From assembly GCA_964187785.1 (NCBI GenBank), contig OZ076409.1, positions 62,870,001-62,934,000 on the forward strand: a stretch of 64,000 nt of DNA, read 5' to 3'. The first letter of the stretch is position 1. Each line of letters begins with the position of its first letter. Under the pieces are notes generated by a model. The model was not told the origin of the DNA. It did not search any database and saw only the letters and a program-made list of their open reading frames with translations. This document shows, piece by piece, positions 9,801 through 40,059 of the stretch. This stretch comes from Amphiscolops sp. MND2022 (lineage: Eukaryota). The translations under genes and the position numbers were made by a program.

Positions 9801-12800
9801 CAACTGGTGAATTGTCGAAGATGCCAAAGTTTCGAAACTTAGTGCATGAAATGTTTTTTTTCCAGCTCAGATTATCAAATACTTAGAATGCTTATAGTGG
9901 ACAAAACGTTTGGTGTTCAGAATTCTTCATGTTTCCTCAATTAAGACGAGTCCTTGAACGTTTGAGGAATTTAACCGCAATGGTTCAACTATATGGAATA
10001 TGTTAAAAACAGTTTAACTATTAAACTTTAAACCACTTGTTGAAAAGTTAATTTTAATTTGTTGATTAGTGTAATTAAAGGACCCAAAAACAGGGATCTT
10101 TCGAACATAATCAACAAAATTGGGCAACCCGGAAAATATCCAATTTTGTGCTGGTATTCTATACATCGTCTTCTACCAGCTGATTATACAACACTAACTC
10201 TAATTGTTTATACCAGTGCACACCAGCGGTATCTTTGGTAATTTTTAAAGGTGACGAGTAAGTTTGAATACATAGATTCTCAATCTTCTGAATTTCAAAA
10301 TAAGGTTTATATTCTGAAATTTTCATCAAGTTTATCACCACCAGGTAAGAAATTGAGAGGAATTTCCGAAATAGTTTCAGATATTGTCAATTTTAAAATC
10401 CACGAGAATTCTTCAGAAAAACGTTGAATTTATTTTTCGAGTTACTAAATTGAAAGGTTCCAAAGAGGTGGTTGCACGGCCGTCACTGATGCACAATAGT
10501 TTGTTACCAATTAAAAATATCTTACATGGCAACGGTTTTTGTACCGCTGAAAAACAGGTTTTCAATGTTTTCACCGGAGACCTGTTTGAAGAAAACTAAT
10601 TGTGGGGAGGGGTTCAAAATATAATGGATTGCCTTTCTTCTTAACTTGATGGAAACACAAGGAATAGCGTGTAATGATCAAATACATTGGCTGTTGAATG
10701 TAAAGCGCCTTGTTTCCATTTTCTCCAAAACAGGATGTATAACGTGTGGAAAATTTGGTTAAAATAGTCATTAGTGAATCAAACATTGATGCCTTTCGAA
10801 CTCCGAGTTGTTTTTACGAAAATAAACAACGGTGAAGGACAAATTTGAAAAGCAATTTTGTTCCCATGTAACGATTTTGTTGTCTGACAATTCTTGACCA
10901 CTGTGTAAATGACATAAAAATAAATTCATGCTCAGGAAGTGAATACATCATCAGTGTAATATGTTCATGTTATTTTTTTTTTTTTTTAAAAATTAAATTA
11001 CTTTGTAATCATGGTTAAGGGTATCATAAATGAAATAACTTACAACTTTAAAACATCACATCAAGCACAATGTTCATGTTAATTTTTGAATGATTTCAAA
11101 CAGCATTCCGACGTTGCTTGTTGCAGAGCAAATATGGTTGAATTAAAACAAACAAAAATCAAGTGACCATAGCACGGTCGGTAGAGTATGGGGCTCGGAA
11201 TTTGAAGGTTATCGGTTCGATTCCCGAAACCGTCAAATATTTGCTACTTCTGAAAATAGTAAAATATATTTTTCAAATATCATTCAAATAATTTGCTATC
11301 TCGAAACTTTAATTTGTTTAATTATATTTGTAAACAATATTGATCTTTTGCAAGTTGTTTCGATTTATTCACTGATGTCTTTGAATGTTTAAAACATTGC
11401 TAACAAAAAACTCTTTGCAAACGGACTGTATTCACCCGAAGGCTTACAGTTTAACAAGGTGGCCATAGAGAGGCACGAATAAATTTTCAAAACTGTGAAC
11501 TTTGACTTATCTGCGGCATTCTCTTTCTGCGTGTACTTGTTTCTTCACTCCAACGAATATTTTGTTCTCGTTCACGATAAACTCGATTGGATTGAATTCC
11601 CACTCAGTAAAGTCATTATTCATTCAAAATGCTTTTCCTGGCTTATCTACCATATGTGACCTCCAAATGAACGACTGCTTTTAACGACCTTCCGCATGCG
11701 ACGTGCGATGAGGAATTCAACAAATTCTATCATTGGCCATTTTTCACGAAGTATTGAACTGTGAACGAATGCAATGTTGTACACATGAGTTCGTGGACTT
11801 CCAGCTCCAACGAAGAGTGACCAGAAGAACCCCCCGTAGTGAACACGAATGTTCCCAACGAAACCCAGAGATACACCCGAAGAACCCCATGACTGTGAGT
11901 TACTTGAAAGAACGAAGATTCTTGAAAACATCTTGAAAATTTTTTGAAAACTTTGATACCCCGAAAGAAGTGTTATTGTTCTAATCTTCGAGATAGCAAA
12001 GTTTCTTGAAATATTAACCAAAACATGCCGCTTTTAGAAGTAAATTAGAAGTAAATCGTGAAAGCAAATAAACTAATAAGCGCAGTGAAAAAAAATTCTT
12101 AAAACTGGTTGTAAAGTTTGTGCCTTGTATTGCAGGAAGCTCTCGAAAATTCGTTGACCCAGACCCATCTCTCTACATTTCGCCAAAAAAGTTGCTTAGA
12201 AACATACATTTTCCTGAGCTTTTTTGTTAAGAAACAATGTGAGTGCATTTTAATGGTGTTTATTGTAGCAGCTAGTTCCTTGCACCTTGCAATAGAAACG
12301 TTAACTCCCGATGAAAAAGAACGTTATGAAGGCAAAATTGTCTCTATCCCGGGCCTAAGTCTTAATCCTAACACGAAAAATCCCAAGAAGATTGTTCAAA
12401 ATTTACTTTCGAAAGATCTGAAAGATAAAAAAGACATTGTGATTTGGCATGATGTTTTGAACAATAGTATTTCGAAACATGATAGCAACAATTTCCGTGC
12501 GTTATCAGTGCTAGATCTAATTAAAACATTGAAAAGTCTTCAAGACAAGCTTTGTGCTCTGGTGTATTGCCAACGTTACCGCACCCCGCACATTTTCGAA
12601 GAATTGAAAGTTTTGCAAACTGATCATAATATCAAAGTGTTCAGTATCGTCAAAGATTTTATATCCGTGAAAAAACAAAAGGATCCCGAGATTCTTAAAC
12701 AATTCAAGGCGTTGCATCAGAGCCCAGAGCTTGAACTGAAGAATTTGGATTTTGTTCTTCGTAAAGAGAATGATCTCAGTAAAATAACTGATAAAAGCCG

Positions 12801-15800
12801 ACCCAAACGGCCAAGCAAGCGTGCCCGGAACGCTGCTAAGAGAGCCGCTGCCTCCTTTTAGACTCAGTTGGCTACCCCCCCGCTTCTTCCAGCTGTCGAG
12901 ACAGTGTCCGAACTTCACTGATCGGTTGAAGTTTCTTCAGCTCTTCCTCCTTCTTTCAGAGTTGTGTCCAGTCTTGACTGACTGGTTGATACTCTGAAAG
13001 ATCGTTTCGTCCCTCAGCCGCACCACCGTCAACTGAGACCGCGTTTCGTCGACGCGACTTTGAGTTTATCGTGTTCCGTCCTCGTAGTCTGTGACTACTT
13101 TTAACTTAAAACAAAAAAAATCGCCAGTTTCTTTGTAGAAGCACTGTACAAACACAGTGTTGTCACCGATAAACACCGTTCTTCTACCGAACTTTTTCTT
13201 GAACTGTGTCCAAACTTAATTGTTTGGTTGACGTCTGAAAAAGTACAAACGCCCACCGATCCTCAAATTTAGCTACGGTCATGTCTGACCCCGTTAACGA
13301 AAAGGTGCAAAAGTTGTATGACAGTCGCGCGAAAGCCGAAGCCGACTTGAACAGATATCAAAAGGACGTGACAGAAGCAGTAAACAATGCCGACAGACGC
13401 GTCCGCGTCGAACGGTTGGTCACTTCTTGCGAAGAGGCTATGACAAAAGCTTTCGCTAAGAACGAACAGCTACTCGAGCTTGCCAAGAAAACCAACGACC
13501 CGGCAACTGTCACAGCGGACTTAGAAAAATGGTTGAACGTCACGAGCATACAAAATGATGAAATTTTGAGAAGCGCAAGGGAATATATCGACCAATGTCC
13601 CAAAACAGATAATTCTTCACAAACTTCAGTCAAAGCTACCACCGTGAAGACCAAGTCTAGCAAAAATTCAAGCAGCAAAGCGTCGAAAACTTCAAGTCAG
13701 CGCCAACGAGACTTGCTTATTGCCAAACACAAGCGAGAAGAAGTTGAACGGCAAAACGAAGCTGCTTTACGATTAGCTAAGCAAAAACAAGAGCTCGAGC
13801 TTGAACAACTGCAAGAAGAGAACCGCAAACGACTTGCAGAAGCGCATCTAGTTGAACTTGAACTTCAGGAAGACCCATCTGAAGCTAACGAAGATGCTCA
13901 TGAGATTCTTTCGCGGTTGAGCAGAACAACAGATGCTAGCGAAACGCGCCGAGTTAGTGACTGGGTTAACAACTCGCCAATCGTTACCACGACTCAACAT
14001 GAGACAGTAACAGCAGTGACTGCAAGTCTAGCGACTTCTGTCGCAAATACTACCGTTTCCATCCCATCTCACCCACCTCCGGTTAATGTCTCTCAGCCGA
14101 CTTTCGCACCAGGTGATCACAACGAAACAAACGTGGCAGTACAACTACCAACAACTACCGTTCCATCAATGAGTTTAAATCACACTCCTGCGGTACAAAC
14201 TCAGACTCCTCCATTTACAGCGCAAAACTTGGGGAATATCGGACCTTCAACATCAGCTGTCATAGTACAACAACAAGTTCAACCGACAATCATCCCGACC
14301 CAAACTGGAAGTTTCAATGCGCAAGTTTTACCGCCACAAACGACAGCACGGATGCCCACGTTCACAATGCCGGTGAATCACATCCTCCCAAACTTGTCCG
14401 CATGGACCTTCCCGAACCCGACCGTTACCACCGCACCAATTGTAACAACAATTCCGCCCCCGACACAGCCGACAGCACCTACTTTCATGCCGCTCGCTCA
14501 CGCGCCAACCTATGCCGCTCCGACCGTACCCGTTACCGCTGGTGGAACTGTTTATTATGTACCCCCAGCAACCGTTACCACACCAATTGTGTACAGTACA
14601 GCTGCACAACCGACGACTTCCCTTAGTCCAACAGCCGCTACATTTGTGCCAACAGGAACTACGCCAATCCCGCAACCAAGTACAACTGGGTTTTCTATTC
14701 AAGATCTTGCTCTTTTGTTAGCTTCAACCAAGAAAGATCATTTGCCCGAGTGGAAGTTAGCACAATACAGCGGAGATCCGCTACAATGGCACGAATGGTT
14801 CGGCCAATTCAAAAGCGCGATCGATGCGGCACCACTAACAGACGATGTTAAGCTAACATACCTGAAAACCCTCGTAACAGGCAAAGCCAAAACTGCAATC
14901 TCTGAGTTCGCCTATTGTGGAGCGATGTATAGAGACGCTCTGAAGACTTTAGAACAGAAATTCGGTCAACCCCAGACTGTAGTAACCGCGTACCTGGACA
15001 AGTTATCGAACTTCCCACCTGTAAAGATGCACAACAGTGAGAGCATCATCAGTTACTCAGCGACCATCTGTTCTTTAGTCGGAGTCTTCCGGTCACTGAA
15101 TTACCTTCAAGATCTATCCAGTGCATCACTGCTGGGACAAGCTGTGCAAAAGCTTCCACCGAATATGAAAGAAGCATGGTCAATGCACACGGTGAAGCGG
15201 ACATTGGACAGGCCAACACTGATCGATTTCAACGATTGGCTCAAAGATAAGGCGGAAGCGCATGAGCGCATGAAGTCTGCCTCAACCAAGCCGAAAACCG
15301 AAGACAGTACTACTACTGCAACAAAGACCAAAACTGTCTCCAAAGTTTTTGCATCGACAGCCTCGTCTAGCCAACAAAGTTCGAACTCGAAGAGTAAAGT
15401 GGAACAACCGCCAAACTGTGTCGCCTGTAAAGACAAACACCCGTTGTGGAGATGTCCAGTTTTCAGAAAAAAGACACCCACGGAGAGAGCAAGAATTGTG
15501 GCAGACAATAAGCTCTGCTTTTCATGCTTCAACCAAAATCACACGTTTCGCCAGTGCCCGCAACCCCGCAAGTGTACGAAAGATGGATGCGGGAGTTCAC
15601 ACAACACTTTCTTGCACGGAGCCGACAGAATATTTGCCAAGAAAGCCACTAATGTGAACAAGGACAAAACTGAAACATCTGGTTGTATTGGGACGTCAAT
15701 GAACAACGAAAGATCAAACGAGAGCTCAGGCATGCCCTCCTTTGCCGATGTTAAAGGCCTCTTACAAGTAACGGAAGTTGAACTTCACGCGAATGGCAAA

Positions 15801-18800
15801 AGTGAAAAAGTCTTAGCACTGTGTGATTCTGCCTGTAGCCATTCCTGGATCTCAGCAAATCTGGCAACGAAGTTGAACGTTCATGGCACCCCGACCAAGC
15901 TTACTGTCCATGGCATAAATTCCAACCAAGTCGTAGACACGCAACTGGTGGAGCTTAAGTTGACACCCGTTCATTCGGGTGGCTCTTGCTCTCCCTTTGT
16001 TGTTAAACCGTACATCAGGGAAGACCTCAAAGTCGGAACTGACACCATCGAAGTCGAACTTTTGAAAACAAAGTACCCCCATTTGCAACCAATCTCTTTG
16101 AAAAGGTACAGCTACGCCGATGTTGAAATGATCCTAGGTCAGGATGTTTTCCACTCGATCCGCCCGCTGGAGTATTTCGATTCCGACCGCAAAAATGCTC
16201 CAGTTGCCGTTCGCTTACCGTTGGGTTGGGTTTTGAGTGGACCGCTCCCCTCGTCCTCAGGTCTCTATTCAACTTGTTTTAAAGCAGTCGCTTGTAACAA
16301 AGAATTGGACTCCGAACTTGCCGACCAACTCCGAAGCTGGTACGATATTGAATCGTATGGAGCGTACAAACAAGTAGATTCGCGTTCCGCTGCCGACGCG
16401 AGAGCGCTGAAAGTACTTGGAGAAACAACTTACCACGATGGTAACCGATACCATGTGGGAATGTTGTGGACCGAAGCCGACAGTAGTTTGCCGAATAACT
16501 ACTTTTCCGCGCTCGTGCAGCTAAAATCATTGGAACGTCGCCTCGACAAAGACCCTGAATTGAAACAACTTTATGCCAAAACAATTCACGACGACTTCAA
16601 CAAAGGGTACATCACCAAAGTTGACAAAAGCGACTGTTTCAAAGTAGACCAACCCCGCGAGTGGTACCTGCCACACCATCCCGTAGTGCACCCGCATAAA
16701 CCCGGCAAAGTTCGCAGAGTATTGAATGGCGCAGCAAAGTTCCAGGGCCAATCTTTGAACAACGCTTTGTTAACCGGACCGGACTTGCTACAAAGTTTGA
16801 TACACATACTGATCCGCTTTCGTCAACACAAGTACGCCGTCTCTGCCGATATCGAAGGTATGTTTCTTCAAGTCGGAGTCATTCCAAAAGATCAACCTTC
16901 ACTTCGTTTTCTGTGGCGGGAAGACCCAGCTGCAGAAGTCGCTGTGTATCAGTACATCCGGCACATCTTTGGATCGAAGGACTCACCAACATGTGCCAAC
17001 TACGCACTGAAGCGCACTGGTAGCGATAACCAAGACACTTTCCCTGAAGCAGCGAAAAGCGTTCATCGCAATTTTTACATGGATGACTACTTGGAATCAA
17101 GCCCTACGGTCGAAGAGGCCAGTAACAAAGCAAAGGACTTGGTCGCACTGCTTGCAAAAGGTGGTTTCAATCTAACCAAGTTTGTCTCCAACATTGCCCA
17201 CCTTCCACCCGATCTGCAACAAAGCGGTGAACTAGCACCGACCGACGAGAAGGTGATTCCGAAACCAGACGAGTCCTCACATGTCTTGGGACTTAAATGG
17301 AATCATGCCTGTGATACCCTCGTAGTAAGTCGGGGAACGAGCCCCGCTACGAACAAGAAACTTACTCAACGAGTGGTGCTGAGCGTAGTTTCAGCTGTCT
17401 ACGATCCCATTGGACTCGTTGCTCCGTTTACCGTCCAAGCAAGACTGTTGTTGAAAGACATCTGGAGATTAAGTGGTCAACAGTGGGATGACGATCTGCC
17501 AGACGAAATCGTAACAAAGTTCAACGAATGGAGCAAGGAGCTGCCAACTTTGAGCGAAATTCAAATCCCACGGAGTTATTTCGAACAGCGAGTCGAAACC
17601 TTGGAGCTTCATATGTTCGGTGACAGCTCTCAAGATGTCTTCAGCGCCGTCGCCTTTCTACGAGGAAAAGTTGCCACCGCGACTGGTTACACCACAGAGT
17701 TAGCCTTCGTCTTCGGGAAAGCCAGAGTGGCACCCATGAAGGCACTTACAATCCCGAAGCTCGAACTGCAAGCATCGTTGCTTGCCGCACGACTCCGAAA
17801 GGAAATCGAAAATGCTCTAACGGTCAGAGTTGACAACACTTTCATGTGGACGGACAGTACCACGGTCCTTCAGTGGCTCCATTCATTAGAGAAGCAACCA
17901 GTGTTTGTCACTAACCGTGTTGCCGAAATCCTGGAATTAACAACGGTGGATGAATGGAATTATGTCAAATCAAGTGACAACCCCGCTGATGCAGGAACGC
18001 GTGGTCTTTCAGCCAACTCACTTCGTGACAGTCCCTGGCTCAAAGGTCCTTCATTCTTGCGGACACACGACTGGCCGTTCGAACCACCAAAAGACGTTGA
18101 GATCAGATTGAAAGCGAAAAAGTCGGATCTTCCCAGTTCCGATCAAGAAACTTCGGAATTTTTGACTGCTTTAAGTGCAACTGTGATCGGCATCGCGACA
18201 ACTTTCGAGTGGCAGAAGTACAGCTCGTACGAGAAACTTCTGCGCGTTGTTGCTTACATCTTGCGCCTACTACCAAAAAACGAAGGTTACCGATCCGACT
18301 CTGGCTTAGTAACTGACCCGAATGAAATGCGAAATGCTGAAATGAGACTTTTCTATCTCATCCAACAAGAGTCATTTCCCGTCGAACTGAAGTGCTTGCT
18401 GAAACAATCCCCCGTCAGCAACTCTTCCAAACTCTCCCAATTCTCTCCTTTCATTGGGCCTCAAGGCCTACTGCGAGCAACCGGTCGGACCAAACAACTA
18501 ACAGTTTCCAACTTCGACGCAAAACACCCTATTTTACTGGACAGCCGTCACCCCGCCGTACGCTTGTACTTAGAGCAGCTCCATGAAACGCATTGCCATC
18601 AGGGTGTCGACTACATGAGGGCGTTGGTGCAGCAACAGTTCGCCATCGTCAAGCTTAGAACCGCCCTGAGGTCAATTGTCTCCAAATGTGTCACTTGCCG
18701 CAAACGTCGAGCGGAAACTCTTAACCCGATAATGTCCGACCTTCCTCGGGAAAGACTGGCATTCAAAGAGCGTCCATTCACGAAAAACGGGATCGACTAT

Positions 18801-21800
18801 TTTGGTCCGTTTTACGTAGCTGTGAAGAGATCAACTGAAAAACGATGGGGATTCCTATTCACTTGCTTAACAACCAGAGCTGTCCACTTTGAAGTTGTTC
18901 CGTCAATGGACACTAGTAGCTGTGTTATGGGGATCGAAAGATTTGCCGCCCGTCGGGGCGTCCCATCTGTTTTGTGGTCTGACAACGGAACCAATTTTAT
19001 CGCCAGTGAAAAGGAGTTGCTACAAAACGTGTCAGCGTGGAATCAACAGACCCTGTCAGAAGCTTTGGTCAAAAAACGGATCCACTGGAAGTTCAATCCC
19101 CCCAGTGCTCCTCACCACGGAGGTGTCTGGGAACGAATTGTCAGGAGCTTCAAACACGTTTTTTATGCAATTCTTGGAAACCGTCGCCTAACGGACGAGA
19201 TACTAACAACTACCTTTTGTCTGGTAGAGCAGAGTCTCAATTCCCGTCCACTAGTACCCGTTAGCGCCGACGCTACGGATTTGGACGCGTTGACACCTAA
19301 CCACTTCCTGTTGGGAACCGCGGGTTCCACAATGCCATCTCACCAAAGAGCCGACGTAGACCACAAAAAACGCTACGCACGTGCACAAGCGTACTCAGAT
19401 GCAATTTGGGACCGTTGGTTAAGAGATTACGTTCCGTCGCTTAACCGCCGTTCAAAGTGGTCAACCCAACCAGATCGAGATCTCAAGACCGGAGACCTTG
19501 TCTGGATTGTGGAAACTACGAGTCCACGAGGACATTTCCCACTTGCACGTGTGGTTAAATTGAACTACGGTACTGACGCAATCGCTCGTTCGGCGGAACT
19601 GAAAACCGCAACAGGAAACCTCGTTCGACCCGTTGTCAAACTCGCACCCGTTCTCCCGTCCCCCGATTCCCCCAATCTTACTTAATCTGTACTAAGCTCT
19701 CGTTGTTCTCGCTTGTAATCGTATCTAATATGAATAAAATGTAACATGTACTTCGAAAATCCATGTAAACAGTTTTTCAAAAAAATTTTTTTTTGTTCAG
19801 TTTAACGTTCACATTGTTTTACATTCACATCTTCTTGGGCCCGGAGGATGTTGCAGAGCAAATATGGTTGAATTAAAACAAACAAAAATCAAGTGACCAT
19901 AGCACGGTCGGTAGAGTATGGGGCTCGGAATTTGAAGGTTATCGGTTCGATTCCCGAAACCGTCAAATATTTGCTACTTCTGAAAATAGTAAAATATATT
20001 TTTCAAATATCATTCAAATAATTTGCTATCTCGAAACTTTAATTTGTTTAATTATATTTGTAAACAATATTGATCTTTTGCAAGTTGTTTCGATTTATTC
20101 ACTGATGTCTTTGAATGTTTAAAACATTGCTAACAAAAAACTCTTTGCAAACGGACTGTATTCACCCGAAGGCTTACAGTTTAACATTGCTAATTTCTTT
20201 TTCTAAAGTTTTTGTTTCAAAGTTGCCGAAATTGCCTATCTTCAAAATGTTAAATGTTTGACTTCAAGTATGCTCTAAGATACTAATAAGAAGCTAATTC
20301 AGTTTTCAGAGTTTTTAAGAAACTACTATTTTATCTCAAATATTTTTTTAGAAATGATAGATAGACTTGGGATTGTTCTATTTTGATTTTGTTGATGAGT
20401 GTGTTTCGAAAGGTATCTGAAAACAGTGCAGAAGTTCATTGCGGCCAACCCACACCTGTCGATGGCGTACCAGGCACAGAGGTCGATCCAGGACGAGATA
20501 GAGCGCGAGTCGATGGGAGATGTGAAGACAGTCATTTGCAGCTACCTCATCATGTTCGGCTACATTACCCTCTGTCTGGGCAAGGTCGGCGGCATCGGTT
20601 GGAGGTCACTGGTCGATGTCAAGGTCAGGTCATCTTAGTTTGAATGAGCTATCCATGGTATTGTCACATGAATCACAAAAACTGAGTTTGCATCTTGAAG
20701 TGCGCTACGTTCAAGCGGCAATTGAATATGCTGTTGTCAATCGCATGTTATTTCCGGGTCCATGGATCTTCGCGTTTATCGATCACTGTTGATAATTTGT
20801 TTATTTGTTTCCACGTTTTGCTTGTTGCAAATAATGAGGTCGATTGAAAATAGTTTTTAATTTCGAAAAAAATGTCCTTTTTTGGAAACGGCAATAAATC
20901 AGTGGTGTTACTGCTGACTTCATTTCCTCGGATAACGCCAATTCATTAGGTATCATTGAGTTGTATATGTTTTCAAATAATATGTAGTTAGTTGGTTGTT
21001 TTTTAGGTCACTCTGGGAGTGGGTGGTGTGGCCATAGTGCTGTGCAGTGTGGCTTGTTCGATAGGAGTGTTTGGGTTCATTGGAGTACCCGCCACTCTCA
21101 TCATCATGGAGGTCGTGCCCTTCCTCGTGCTCGCAGTTGGAGTGGACAACATATTCATACTCGTTCAATACTTTCAGGTAAGTTGGAAAGCACAACACAT
21201 GCACGATACACAAGCGTTTTTGAACTTGAAAAACATTGAACGAACGTGGCTGAAAGCATCATCCATTGTTTTAAAAATATGAGAGGAAACACTATATTCA
21301 ATACTATCAGAAATAGTTACCGTTAAAAACCCAAAAATATATTTTAGCTTTTCTGCCCACGTGTTTATTGGCAACTACTTCGTGTTTAGAAGCTTCTTCT
21401 ATGCTACGAGTTCATTCCGAGCAAAAATGTCACAAACTGAAAAAAAAGTTTTCTTTGTATTTGTAATGGAAATATAATGTTTATACCAAGCTGCGATTAC
21501 CTGTACTGAATTTAGTCGGTGCTTTTTGAAAAAAGTGCAAGACTATAACTGGCTAGTTTTCAGTCGACGCTTTTACTAAGTGAAAGTGCCTTTTTGTGAG
21601 TGCACATTGACGGAATGGTCTTCTTTTATCCAAAAATATTCCCCTTTGATTATTTTACAATTTTATTCGAATAAAAAAACTACATGAAGGGGTCCGTGTT
21701 AGTTGATTACTTGATGCCTCAATTAAGGAACGCTCCTATTATTTTCATTGCTGTTAGAGCAATCCCGCCTTGTAAGATTTATTGGGTTCTTAATTCTATA

Positions 21801-24800: not shown

Positions 24801-27800
24801 TTTGAATGTCATTTTAAAGATTGTGATGAGTAAAGACTTTGGTGAAAGGTATATTTTGTGGAAAAAATTTCAAAATCCGCCGAATTTGCAACAAGTTTTC
24901 TTCTTAACCTTAAGTTGGCCAGGAAAAATCTTGTTGCATCCAAAAATCAGGTGCTTCAACTTTAAACCGCGATATCTCCTGAACTATACAAGTCCGACAA
25001 ACGATTTATACAGCGTTCGAAAGAGGAGCATTGGGGCTTTCAAATCAATTTTTAAACTGCTGGGCTTGGGGCCCGCTAGCGCGGGCCCCTTGCGCGCAAA
25101 GTTTTTTGCGCGAAGTTCTCCGCTGGCGTGCGGCTTCGCCACACTGGCTCCGAACTTTGCGCCAAAACTTTGCACGCGTCGTGTCTCTGCTTGCTTTTCA
25201 ACATGTTTCAAAACATGCCGGGGACGCTTTGACCCAATGTTGATACCAGTGGGATAAAAGGGGCACAAACCAAAACTGGGAAAACGGAAAATCTGCACTT
25301 ATTTTTCTTTTGATTTTTTTGCGTCATTTTCTGGGTTTTGGAGACATCACGTCAATTTTCCGTGAAAAGGCGCCGAATGCTATGCAATATTGTCTGAAAC
25401 TCTTATTAAAGGTTTTGCTTTACCATACAATCAGCTGGTGCGTTAAGAATTTGCAGAAACAAAATGTGCCAAATTTGGCACATTGGCCAAGTTAAGGTTA
25501 ACGCGACGAAAATGAAAAGCTCAAAACTTGGCCTTAATGATGCAAAAACTCATTTCAGGACTTAAAACAACTGAAAAAGATAGCCTGAGCGCAATTTGAA
25601 AAATTTAGTATTTTTTTGTTAACCTTAAGTTGGCCAGGAAAAATCTTGTTGCATCCAAAAATCAGGTGCTTCAACTTTAAACCGCGATATCTCCTGAACT
25701 ATACAAGTCCGACAAACGATTTATACAGCGTTCGAAAGAGGAGCATTGGGGCTTTCAAATCAATTTTTAAACTGCTGGGCTTGGGGCCCGCTAGCGCGGG
25801 CCCCTTGCGCGCAAAGTTTTTTGCGCGAAGTTCTCCGCTGGCGTGCGGCTTCGCCACACTGGCTCCGAACTTTGCGCCAAAACTTTGCACGCGTCGTGTC
25901 TCTGCTTGCTTTTCAACATGTTTCAAAACATGCCGGGGACGCTTTGACCCAATGTTGATACCAGTGGGATAAAAGGGGCACAAACGAAAACTGGGAAAAC
26001 GGAAAATCTGCACTTATTTTTCTTTTGATTTTTTTGCGTCATTTTCTGGGTTTTGGAGACATCACGTCAATTTTCCGTGAAAAGGCGCCGAATGCTATGC
26101 AATATTGTCTGAAACTCTTATTAAAGGTTTTGCTTTACCATACAATCAGCTGGTGCGTTAAGAATTTGCAGAAACAAAATGTGCCAAATTTGGCACATTG
26201 GCCAAGTTAAGGTTAAAGTTCGTAATGTTTCCTATGATTAAAAGTTTATTATTTTCCGACCCCACATTTTATAAATGGGGGAGGAAAATCATGATCTGTG
26301 ACGCGTTTTTTTCCAAATTTTGCCAAATCTCCACAATCTCCACCTTTTGATTACTTGACTATTTTATATAGCTATTAGTAACTAAAATAGTCAAGTAACT
26401 AAAATAGCATACAGCGGGAATAATATCTAAAGTCAAAAAAGGGAATAAGATCTGAAGGGAATAAGATCTAAAATTTCAGGGCGGGAATAAGATATAAAAT
26501 CACTAAATTTTAGATCTTATTCTTTAGATCCTATTCCCCCCTCCCAAAATAGCTATGGCTCAGTTGGTGAAGGCGAACAGGGGGGCGGAAAATATCCCGG
26601 TGCTTAGCGGGCGTCTTGTAAATCATCGAATGATATTTTGTTTGTTTCAGAGGAAAAGCTGCTTATTCAAGTTCTGTATCTTTTGCAAATGGTGCTGCTA
26701 TTTCTCGCGCTGAGGGAGGAGAAAACCAAAATATGAATGGGAAGAAAATCTCTTCAAGCTACTTCATGACATATCACGTTGCCCTTAGGACTTCTGACGA
26801 TTTCACCGAGGCTTTAATCCAATCTCGTGCTTTGGCTGCTGAAATATCCAAAACCATCAACGCTCAAGTCTACCCTTATTCGTTAGTATAGCTATTTTTT
26901 GGTGAAAATATAATTTGCTGAATTATTTAAAATGTTTTGGACCATGTTTCTTATTCCCCATGGGGGATGTGAAACAAGGTTCAAATACCATTATGGCGAC
27001 ATTGGCTGAGATAAGAAATGTGGTCCACTAGCCAATTCGTTCGTGCGCTCATACTCCGAGACTAAATATTTTACCTAATGACAGTAGTTTTCACGTTCAC
27101 TGGACATGGTCGAGTTGGTTAGTTCCGTACTTTGCTATACGGTAAACCACCAGAGGTGTGATCGCTAACCATTTTATAGCTAATCGCTAACATCGCTAAT
27201 GGCCCGATTTCATCGCTATCGCTACAACAAAATGGGTTCGCTAACGCTATCGCTAATTAAAAAACTGATTTTCAAGATATTCATTTAAATTTCAGAAAGT
27301 TTTGAACTTTTTTTGAGAAAAGTCTAGTTCGCCTTGGGCAATATTTTTCAGCAGAATCATATTTTCAATCGTTCTCACTTTAACGGCATTGCATTCTGTT
27401 TAGCGAATGAAAATGTTCGCTAACGCCCTAATTTGTCGCTAACTATCGCTATCGCTAATTAATGCTGAATTGTCACTAACGCTATCGCTCTCGCTGTCAC
27501 ACCTCTGTAAACCACCGATTCGAACCTTGCTCTAAGCACGAACTTTTTGAACAGGCTCGTCAAATGCAATTTTCTGTATCTGCGGGCAAGGTGGAGCCTA
27601 TTTTGGTTCTCATTTGCTCTCAGCATCTATTTCTTGGGTTATAGCCCAAGATTCGGTTGCTTTCCTTTAAATTCAATAAAAATTGAAAATGTTCCTGAGA
27701 AATGTGTATGGAATTGAAAGGTTAACTTCCTGAAACTTTTACAGATTTTGATTTTATCCCGAAACGTGATATGGAAATATACTGATAGATGAACTTTTTG

Positions 27801-38800: not shown

Positions 38801-40012
38801 CGGTTATCTGCGACTCTTTCGACCTTCGTTTTAGTTTCAAGAGAGACTCTTCGAGTACTGCAATATTTTGTAGCCGCGTAGAAGCTGAATTTTCACTATT
38901 GGACTGATTTTCTTTGGGTTAAAGCTATGGAATCTAAGAAGCTCATCAGCTATTTGGAGGGACTTGAGGGCATTCAGATATCGAACCGGTTCCCCATTGC
39001 GGTCGTTCCCTATTTGCTACTGACTAGCCCTTATTACTGGCTCAATAAGGACGACTACTGGAAAATTAGAAAGCTTACTTGCAAAGAAAGTGAATCTGGA
39101 ACTGCATAAGCCGAATTCATCTGTTAACAGCGATTTTAAATAATTCGGCGTAAGCTGGATTATTGAAATGCTGATAGCTTTTGAGGAGCACCAAACCCAG
39201 TTTTCATTGTATTTACATGATGACATTGTATTTACTTACGGCAGCTAGTGATATAGTTACTGATGGAAAGCTACCATCGATTCGAGAAATTGAAAGCTCG
39301 GTGAGAGGGACAGGAGCTCTGACAATATTCAAAAGAGTGGAAGCTAAAATAGTCATTCACAAGAAACGAGAATTTATCACAAAACGGGAAGCTTGTAGCC
39401 GAGTTTTTAGTGGGCGCTTTTGTAGAAAGCAGACTATAGTACTGTTTTTTTAAAGACAGACGAAATGACAGATTTTATAAGCAATGTTGGCGATGTGTCT
39501 TGTGACAATATAAATACTACATTTGAGCTGTAAAAAGTGCTAAGGAGTCGCCTTCGACAATAACACAACACATACCGGATTTAAGGCAAACCGGTTATAA
39601 CGTTTACCGGGGTATAACGTTTCTTGTAGAATTTTTCAATGTTACAAAAGGGTTTTCTGATTTCAAGGATAATTATAAGTACTCTTTGTTTCGTATGTTA
39701 TCAATATCAATAGTTCTCATTCTCAGTGAGGAAACACAATGAAAGTCAAAAGTTGTAGTTATGAGTCTATGAGTCTTTTCAGTGACATGTTCCGCCCCCT
39801 TAGCTGCAGGGTCGATGCAGTAGTAAGTGGTTGGGTGTCAGTGGCCCTTCATTCTCTGGCTGATCGGCAACATGAAACAGTCGGCGGGAATTTAGCATCA
39901 GCTCTATTTCTACTAAAATGGTGAAAAAATTTCAAAGTGAGCTGCGATCCTAGGATGATCACAAGTGTTCAATTGGCTGTCTGGAACATCCTCACCCATG
40001 CTCCATCGAAAC

Positions 40013-40059
40013 GGGGAGATGACGGTGGGTTGAAATCGCATTGCATATCGGCAGTTTGC
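40013..40059 (+). repeat. 47-bp dispersed repeat (second copy 41720-41766)
   Basis: ggggagatgacggtgggttgaaatcgcattgcatatcggcagtttgc; two mismatches between copies. Confidence 0.8.

Follow-up and report, generated by a model that had tools for sequence, protein, structure and literature searches.

A separate first gene with a predicted SGNH hydrolase fold in BEL/Pao retrotransposons and LINEs of Amphiscolops sp. MND2022

We analyzed a 64,000-nucleotide (nt) stretch of the Amphiscolops sp. MND2022 genome (GCA_964187785.1, contig OZ076409.1:62,870,001-62,934,000, forward strand), hereafter the window, to which all coordinates refer unless another locus is named. The open reading frame (ORF) at 12253-12861, here called ORF0, is the separate first gene of an intact, young BEL/Pao retrotransposon. 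It is conserved and under purifying selection, structure prediction gives its product an SGNH hydrolase fold, and members of the same family also head long interspersed nuclear elements (LINEs) in the same genome. An earlier note on this DNA had pointed to the gene and its SGNH-like character but had missed its presence in LINEs.

ORF0 runs from its own ATG to a TAG, encodes 202 amino acids (aa), and lies between the 5' long terminal repeat (LTR; 11119-11456) and gag-pol (13281-19685), 419 nt upstream of the latter, so that the earlier description of an intact stand-alone ORF inside an LTR retrotransposon was correct. The gag-pol product (2134 aa) contains Peptidase_A17, DUF1759, DUF5641, RVT_1, and integrase zinc domains, and the element has the LTRs, primer-binding site, polypurine tract, protease-reverse transcriptase (RT)-RNase H-integrase order, and Pao-specific domains by which BEL/Pao elements (Belpaoviridae) are defined (PMC8742986). 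Since both LTRs of this BEL/Pao element are identical across 338 nt and TTGCT is duplicated on either flank of the complete element (11119-20186), the insertion must be very young. The features are as follows.

11114..11118, no strand: left target-site duplication TTGCT, 5 bp, flanking the element
11119..11456, + strand: 5' LTR, 338 nt, TG...CA, with the same sequence as the 3' LTR
11457..11474, + strand: primer-binding-site-like stretch, common to sister copies
11457..12252, + strand: 5' leader, about 800 nt, with 12 upstream AUGs in the window copy
12253..12861, + strand: ORF0, separate 202-aa gene of predicted SGNH fold; start codon preceded by T at -3 and followed by G at +4, internal Met absent
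12268..12282, + strand: block I, AASSL, Ser8 at the nucleophile position (Ser in 73/79); compare GDSIV 141-145 of structure 4C1B
12346..12363, + strand: block II, IPGLSL, Gly34 (Gly in 72/79); compare FPGARV 163-168 of 4C1B
12445..12468, + strand: block III, His66 and Asn70/Asn71, spaced as H191 and N195/D196 of 4C1B; mapped by spacing, not by superposition
12694..12723, + strand: block V, L148...K152-A-L-H155-Q-S, with Lys at the Asp position; compare L275, D279, and L281-H282-P-S of 4C1B
12787..12858, + strand: Lys/Arg-rich C-terminal tail, ending in a helix (189-201) in the predicted model
12862..13280, + strand: spacer, 419 nt, without ATG (2.0 expected)
13281..19685, + strand: BEL/Pao gag-pol, 2134 aa, a single open frame
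19837..19848, + strand: purine-rich tract ahead of the 3' LTR
19849..20186, + strand: 3' LTR
20187..20191, no strand: right target-site duplication TTGCT

By eye, positions 11143-11215, present in both LTRs, resemble a degenerate tRNA and contain words reminiscent of A and B boxes; this reading was not confirmed, as ARAGORN found 0 genes and Rfam gave no match above the gathering score.

A search of the own genome with ORF0 returned 3498 candidates, and all 150 of those that were scored matched at 73 to 100% identity; a 62%-identical relative gave access to an additional subfamily. A profile search reached 800 clusters (50% identity) at an E value of ≤0.001, with full-length matches mostly of 185 to 235 aa. 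In 59 of 60 close loci (window included), ORF0 was followed by the start of a BEL gag on the same strand; at the remaining locus, an internal deletion joins ORF0 to the end of the RT. For selection analysis, the 60 close loci were reduced to 53 intact ones (7 dropped) and then to 48 unique copies, for which the codon-model ratio of nonsynonymous to synonymous rates (dN/dS, or omega) was 0.16. Pairwise dN/dS dropped from 0.26 to 0.11 with distance, with 277 of 1128 pairs saturated. Choosing the loci by protein similarity biases dN downward, but at 75 to 80% protein identity the synonymous sites are already saturated. Synonymous variation was present at the codons of the invariant residues H66, D67, N70, N71, H76, H155, and E161. 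ORF0 is under purifying selection, and, given the 73 to 100% genome matches, the dN/dS of 0.16, and the 800 clusters, it is a conserved gene and not a chance ORF. Conservation among related elements, which the earlier note had set as a test of its own proposal, is thereby established. As to individual copies, one locus has two ORF0 copies 1.2 kb apart, and another retains LTRs, ORF0, and gag with most of pol gone.

The AlphaFold2 model of ORF0 (79-sequence alignment) reached a pLDDT of 96.8 and a pTM of 0.89. It has five strands alternating with helices in alpha/beta order, that is, the flavodoxin-like alpha/beta arrangement with a five-stranded sheet that characterizes the SGNH superfamily. 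The top Foldseek matches were the GDSL lipase 3p94 (E value, 6e-4; TM score, 0.53) and PAF acetylhydrolase (PAF-AH). With VIA-align, the top six had Z scores of 11.7 to 11.1 at root mean square deviations (rmsd) of 3.1 to 3.6 Å; the first two (Z of 11.7 and 11.6) aligned over 143 to 159 residues at an rmsd of 3.2 to 3.6 Å (7ddy_A: Z, 11.7; rmsd, 3.6; 159 aligned), and all 50 among the matches listed are SGNH-fold proteins. Matches to viral structures were mostly SGNH, or without name, and in the ESM Atlas ORF0 scored 0.92 to Lipase_GDSL clusters, some of its neighbors being eukaryotic. The check by AlphaFold and Foldseek proposed in the earlier note, which had made its claim depend on an SGNH-like fold, thus came out in its favor. 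Sequence comparison weighs on the other side: neither the protein nor two alignments retrieved an SGNH match from Pfam or PDB sequences, and hhalign of the ORF0 profile against four ordinary SGNH domains of the own genome was not significant (probability of 18.7%). The Pfam families Lipase_GDSL and Lipase_GDSL_2 were not among the matches listed for the ORF0 protein or for the 53 close and 79 diverse members, nor were the OSK domain of Oskar and 4C1B (the latter domain-swapped) among the fold-search matches listed for the model. Judged from the predicted structure, the ORF0 product almost certainly has the SGNH hydrolase fold.

Residues were counted over 79 sequences of the ORF0 family, mostly 30 to 45% identical. 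In the window copy, the motifs are AASSL (6-10), SIPG (31-34), WHDVLNNS (65-72), and KALH (152-155), and across the family the residues of SGNH blocks I, II, and V are kept (Ser8 in 73/79, Gly34 in 72/79, and His155 in 76/79). Block III has Asn at position 70 in 64/79 and at position 71 in 72/79, and which of them would be the oxyanion Asn was judged from the spacing in 4C1B, the esterase of the LINE ZfL2-1. The ORF0 blocks match those of 4C1B, as printed in PMC10792757, by spacing. By spacing too, His66 (76/79) may correspond to the block III His that the ZfL2-1 esterase paper names transposon-specific (PMC3905857). Further conserved positions are Trp65 (74/79), Asp67 (72/79), His76 (69/79), and Glu161 (71/79). 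In contrast, the triad Asp (DxxH) is gone in 48/48 members labelled by element class (see below), with K, R, A, or Q at position 152. The Ser and His that the earlier note saw in its AASS and KALH blocks, and the absence of the Asp, recur across the family. The same holds for the Lys/Arg (K/R)-rich tail that it had reported, with 9 K/R within the final 24 aa of ORF0 and 6 to 15 in the last 25 aa of 48/48 labelled members, all of which are basic (pI of 9.5 to 11.7).

Our preferred reading, to which we give a probability of roughly 0.45, is that ORF0 would be a basic membrane-binding helper of the retroelement RNA-protein particle whose esterase activity would be weak or nil. We favor membrane tethering because ORF0 is basic with a K/R tail and the ZfL2-1 esterase (pI 10.8), a poor enzyme, binds acidic lipids and liposomes even with a mutated active site (PMC3905857). 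Against it, the membrane role is drawn from that analogy, and, in the active site, the residue preceding Ser8 is Ala in 72/79, where Asp, Asn, Gln, or Thr is normal (PMC10792757), while the block III Gly (GxND) is replaced by V, I, L, or A at position 68, which together make activity doubtful. The lost Asp is no proof of inactivity, because in 5 of 30 reference SGNH structures the acid is supplied by an oxygen of the main chain (PMC10792757).

The same substitutions, together with the loss of the triad Asp and the very basic protein with its K/R tail, would also suit an OSK-like factor without catalysis that binds the RNA of the element and either brings it to germ line granules or protects it from silencing by small RNAs, OSK being an RNA-binding SGNH fold (PMC10792757). 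We consider this unlikely, given that Ser8, Gly34, Asn71, and His155 are kept in 72 to 76 of 79 members at ca. 30 to 45% identity, unlike in OSK, that five solved SGNH structures lack the acid side chain (PMC10792757), and that the isolated ZfL2-1 esterase, though basic, showed no A27 RNA binding (PMC3905857). The four signature residues and the invariant H66, D67, H76, and E161 around the pocket would fit, instead, an active deacylase or acyltransferase acting on a host target (a defense protein, a lipid messenger, or a modified RNA), that is, a counterdefense enzyme shared by the elements. Low-level expression by leaky scanning (see below) would suit an enzyme, and the swapping of alleles on an unchanged chassis and the use by two element classes would fit a host-directed function. 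Against this, the overall omega of 0.16 gave no sign of faster protein change, and the ZfL2-1 esterase showed no histone deacetylase activity (PMC3905857). We rate such an enzyme as somewhat less likely still than the RNA-binding factor, and membrane tethering remains our preferred role for ORF0.

We compared start contexts and Met contents over 29 loci, one per lineage. A pyrimidine at -3 was found at 27/29 ORF0 starts versus 10/29 downstream starts, although the lineages share ancestry and broken copies may have led to a few wrongly assigned downstream starts. At these loci, the next ORF had 77 Met within its first 200 codons, and ORF0 had 3 internal ones; in another count, internal Met made up 1 of 10,663 ORF0 codons, and it was 0.23% in set A2 versus 1.22% in gag-pol. 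Out-of-frame ATGs inside ORF0 were 11 versus 44 expected in LINEs and 54 versus 85 in BEL elements. These patterns suggest that ORF0 is probably read by leaky scanning, in which some ribosomes would initiate at ORF0 and the rest pass on to the main genes. The window copy itself argues the other way. Its leader (793 nt counted) has 12 ATGs versus 14.2 expected (104 versus 177 expected over 21 BEL leaders, and 2 versus 17 in four LINE leaders), and out-of-frame ATGs inside its ORF0 are not depleted (6 versus 7.1 expected, all opening frames of 2 to 15 codons), so that plain scanning from the LTR would be insufficient, and the long-leader clade must rely on ribosome shunting, splicing, or internal initiation. 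In rice tungro bacilliform virus (RTBV), which uses leaky scanning through AUG-free ORFs, short internal upstream ORFs are harmless (PMC5902531). ORFs I and II of RTBV and those of badnaviruses resemble ORF0 as small, weak-start ORFs without internal AUG ahead of a capsid-RT polyprotein; these are, however, plant pararetroviruses with unrelated proteins, and scanning was demonstrated there by experiment, while here we have a sequence pattern (PMC5902531).

An intron model, in which ORF0 would be spliced out to express Gag, was not supported by counts of donor and acceptor words: a donor-like GTGAG stood ≤20 nt before the ORF0 ATG in 2 of 55 loci with an ATG found, donor-like words occurred in 16/30 leaders versus 8.6 in shuffles, and acceptor-like words in 7/30 spacers versus 10 in shuffles.

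The marked selection that AUG content seems to have undergone, and the many BEL lineages that lack the gene (see below), would also be expected if ORF0 acted chiefly as a long upstream ORF damping translation, or as a hitchhiking cassette, and its protein were of little import. We regard this as very improbable, since purifying selection on amino acids (omega of 0.16), a conserved pocket, and a confident fold are not needed for a damper.

To cover the breadth of the family, 40 distant loci were hand-picked to span the subfamilies found with three distant queries. Of these, 19 were BEL/Pao, 19 LINE, and 2 unclear, one locus (L098) being assigned to the LINEs by its CCHC ORF1 and its DNA identity to another (L093); some of the distant BEL/Pao carriers were only 26 to 34% like the pol of the window element. 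The LINE carriers have three ORFs in the order ORF0, ORF1, and endonuclease-RT, with PHD and/or CCHC domains in the ORF1 of one group and no notable Pfam domain in that of the other. Since LINE copies are alignable from 200 to 240 nt before ORF0 down to their microsatellite tails, ORF0 lies inside the LINE element. Four LINE families (L093, L096, L103, and L105) have a common 5'-end motif of ca. 28 nt located 200 to 240 nt before ORF0, and a GTTAGTT word stands 22 to 65 nt ahead of the ORF0 start in several LINE and two BEL lineages.

In the ORF0 tree of 48 labelled rows (28 BEL, 19 LINE, and 1 unclear; L099 was left out as broken), BEL-borne ORF0 appeared in at least three places, the tree being unrooted and no direction of transfer claimed. 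Approximately unbiased (AU) tests, based on shortened constrained searches under LG+F+G4, rejected monophyly of BEL (P = 0.0008) and of the first LINE group, LINEa (P = 1e-4). ORF0 thus appears, from these trees, to have been swapped between the BEL and LINE classes. At closer range, the window element and L047 differ at 117 of 6405 nt in gag-pol (1.8%) and at 125 of 609 nt in ORF0 (21%). The leader of the window copy (11457-12252) was unalignable with those of L003, L004, L014, L029, L030, and L047, even though their LTRs are 99% and their gag starts 98 to 100% identical. Such comparisons suggest that the 5' leader and ORF0 behave as exchangeable modules. BEL trees of RNase H and integrase had deep branches too weak for transfers to be placed on them. 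ORF0 does not occur throughout BEL/Pao: when 20 BEL loci were chosen by their RNase H score, 0 had an intact member (one had a fragment), so that many BEL lineages do without it. No fused or longer ORF0 forms were found among 8000 candidates of 425 to 2000 aa, which is weak evidence.

Taken as a mechanism, an intact, selected ORF in first position of BEL and LINE elements would encode a protein with the predicted SGNH fold (a high-confidence prediction). With Ser, Gly, Asn, and His kept and the Asp and two usual helper residues changed, its pocket may work as a Ser-His dyad, binding or slowly cleaving an acyl group. Through the weak start and the loss of internal Met, one RNA would give both ORF0 and Gag-Pol or ORF1, with ORF0 likely made in small amounts as most ribosomes slide past; because leaky scanning would let one RNA yield both products, the cassette could head unrelated elements. 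The conflict between the ORF0 tree and element class points to repeated exchange, presumably by recombination between retroelement RNAs. Finally, by analogy to ZfL2-1, the basic surface may bind acidic phospholipids and the tail RNA, so that particles would be tethered to membranes.

ORF0 is a bare 200-aa protein of two classes with almost nothing in common in replication (particles and integrase versus target-primed insertion), and its job would therefore lie in a step that they share: localization of the RNA-protein complex, membranes, or host defense. With it, the gene set of BEL/Pao gains an accessory member, and leaky scanning becomes a candidate route to cassette portability; it also bears on the role of retrotransposon esterases, a question standing since the ZfL2-1 structure. 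The protein is short, its fold is confidently predicted, and candidate copies run into the thousands, so that it should be easy to assay.

Among the same 20 BEL loci chosen by RNase H, 4 carry a different SGNH-like first gene of ca. 200 aa, 3 intact and 1 truncated:

L139:2918-3505, + strand: second-family gene
L141:6510-7106, - strand: second-family gene
L152:6493-7095, - strand: second-family gene
L151: second-family gene, truncated

This second family has DS, PG, GGN, and DxxH motifs and a basic tail and was weakly similar to ordinary SGNH domains in profile comparison (probability of 55%; E value, 1e-4). It was not alignable to ORF0, and its starts follow the ORF0 pattern in 4/4 (pyrimidine at -3, no internal Met). 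Ordinary SGNH domains with GDS/GxND/DxxH motifs also form several multicopy families in the genome (L061-L080; 39 PF13472 matches), some directly before long ORFs. A tentative and rather doubtful extension is that the genome has a common stock of first genes, SGNH-fold cassettes adapted to leaky scanning and insertable before any retroelement, which would move repeatedly between LTR and non-LTR elements and give envelope-less elements a common membrane-trafficking or antisilencing function; on this view, the second family, with its like start signature, would suggest that the design arose twice.

Elsewhere in the window, there is a direct repeat of at least 300 nt, 99% identical, at 24896-25910 (715-nt spacing) and a decayed integrase-like fragment at 39818-40034 (minus strand).

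We compared ORF0 with known systems. The BEL/Pao profile of the International Committee on Taxonomy of Viruses gives solely gag, pol, and env (PMC8742986), and neither esterase nor hydrolase occurs as a word in the main text of PMC3118150. We found no SGNH gene of BEL/Pao elements in the literature searched; Repbase, subscription journals, and supplements lie outside that coverage and may hold such an annotation. The earlier statement that no separate gene of this kind was known in BEL/Pao stands to that extent, but a separate one had already been described in another LTR element: Vesta elements of bdelloid rotifers have a GDSL/SGNH ORF3 of a type common to Athena/Terminon Penelope-like elements (PMC5408684). 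Like ORF0, Vesta ORF3 is an SGNH gene with an LTR retrotransposon frame of its own, of a type common to retroelement classes and of putative function. Vesta is, however, not BEL/Pao, and its gene follows pol, measures ca. 1.3 kb, and has intact catalytic residues (PMC5408684), whereas ORF0 comes first (before gag in 59/60 close loci), measures 0.6 kb, lacks the Asp, occurs also in APE-type LINEs, and has a leaky-scanning signature. The separate SGNH ORF of amphibian Ngaro elements, also of putative function, stands after the tyrosine recombinase in another element class (PMC9210276). OSK (5A4A) likewise has an SGNH fold with an altered active site, but there Asp replaces the nucleophile Ser and no triad is left (PMC10792757), while ORF0 keeps Ser, Gly, Asn, and His; the missing Asp seen in the earlier note does not place ORF0 with OSK. 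Also related in kind are the type IV ORF1 proteins (ORF1p) of CR1/L2/RTEX LINEs, including ZfL2-1 (4C1B), which have, as predicted for ORF0, a basic SGNH domain in first position, with like block spacing and, by that spacing, a probable counterpart of the block III His (PMC3905857, PMC4120745). In type IV ORF1p, the esterase is a C-terminal domain behind a coiled coil, replacing RRM/CCHC (PMC3905857, PMC4120745); that of ZfL2-1, tied into ORF1p, is dispensable in HeLa cells. ORF0, in contrast, is a bare domain with block I from residue 6, in its own ORF before a PHD/CCHC ORF1 or Gag, with a C-terminal basic motif and no triad Asp. With additional SGNH domains or genes already described for LINE ORF1, Ngaro, and Vesta, we rank ORF0 not as wholly new but as a variant on them, for which the literature searched gave no earlier BEL/Pao case.

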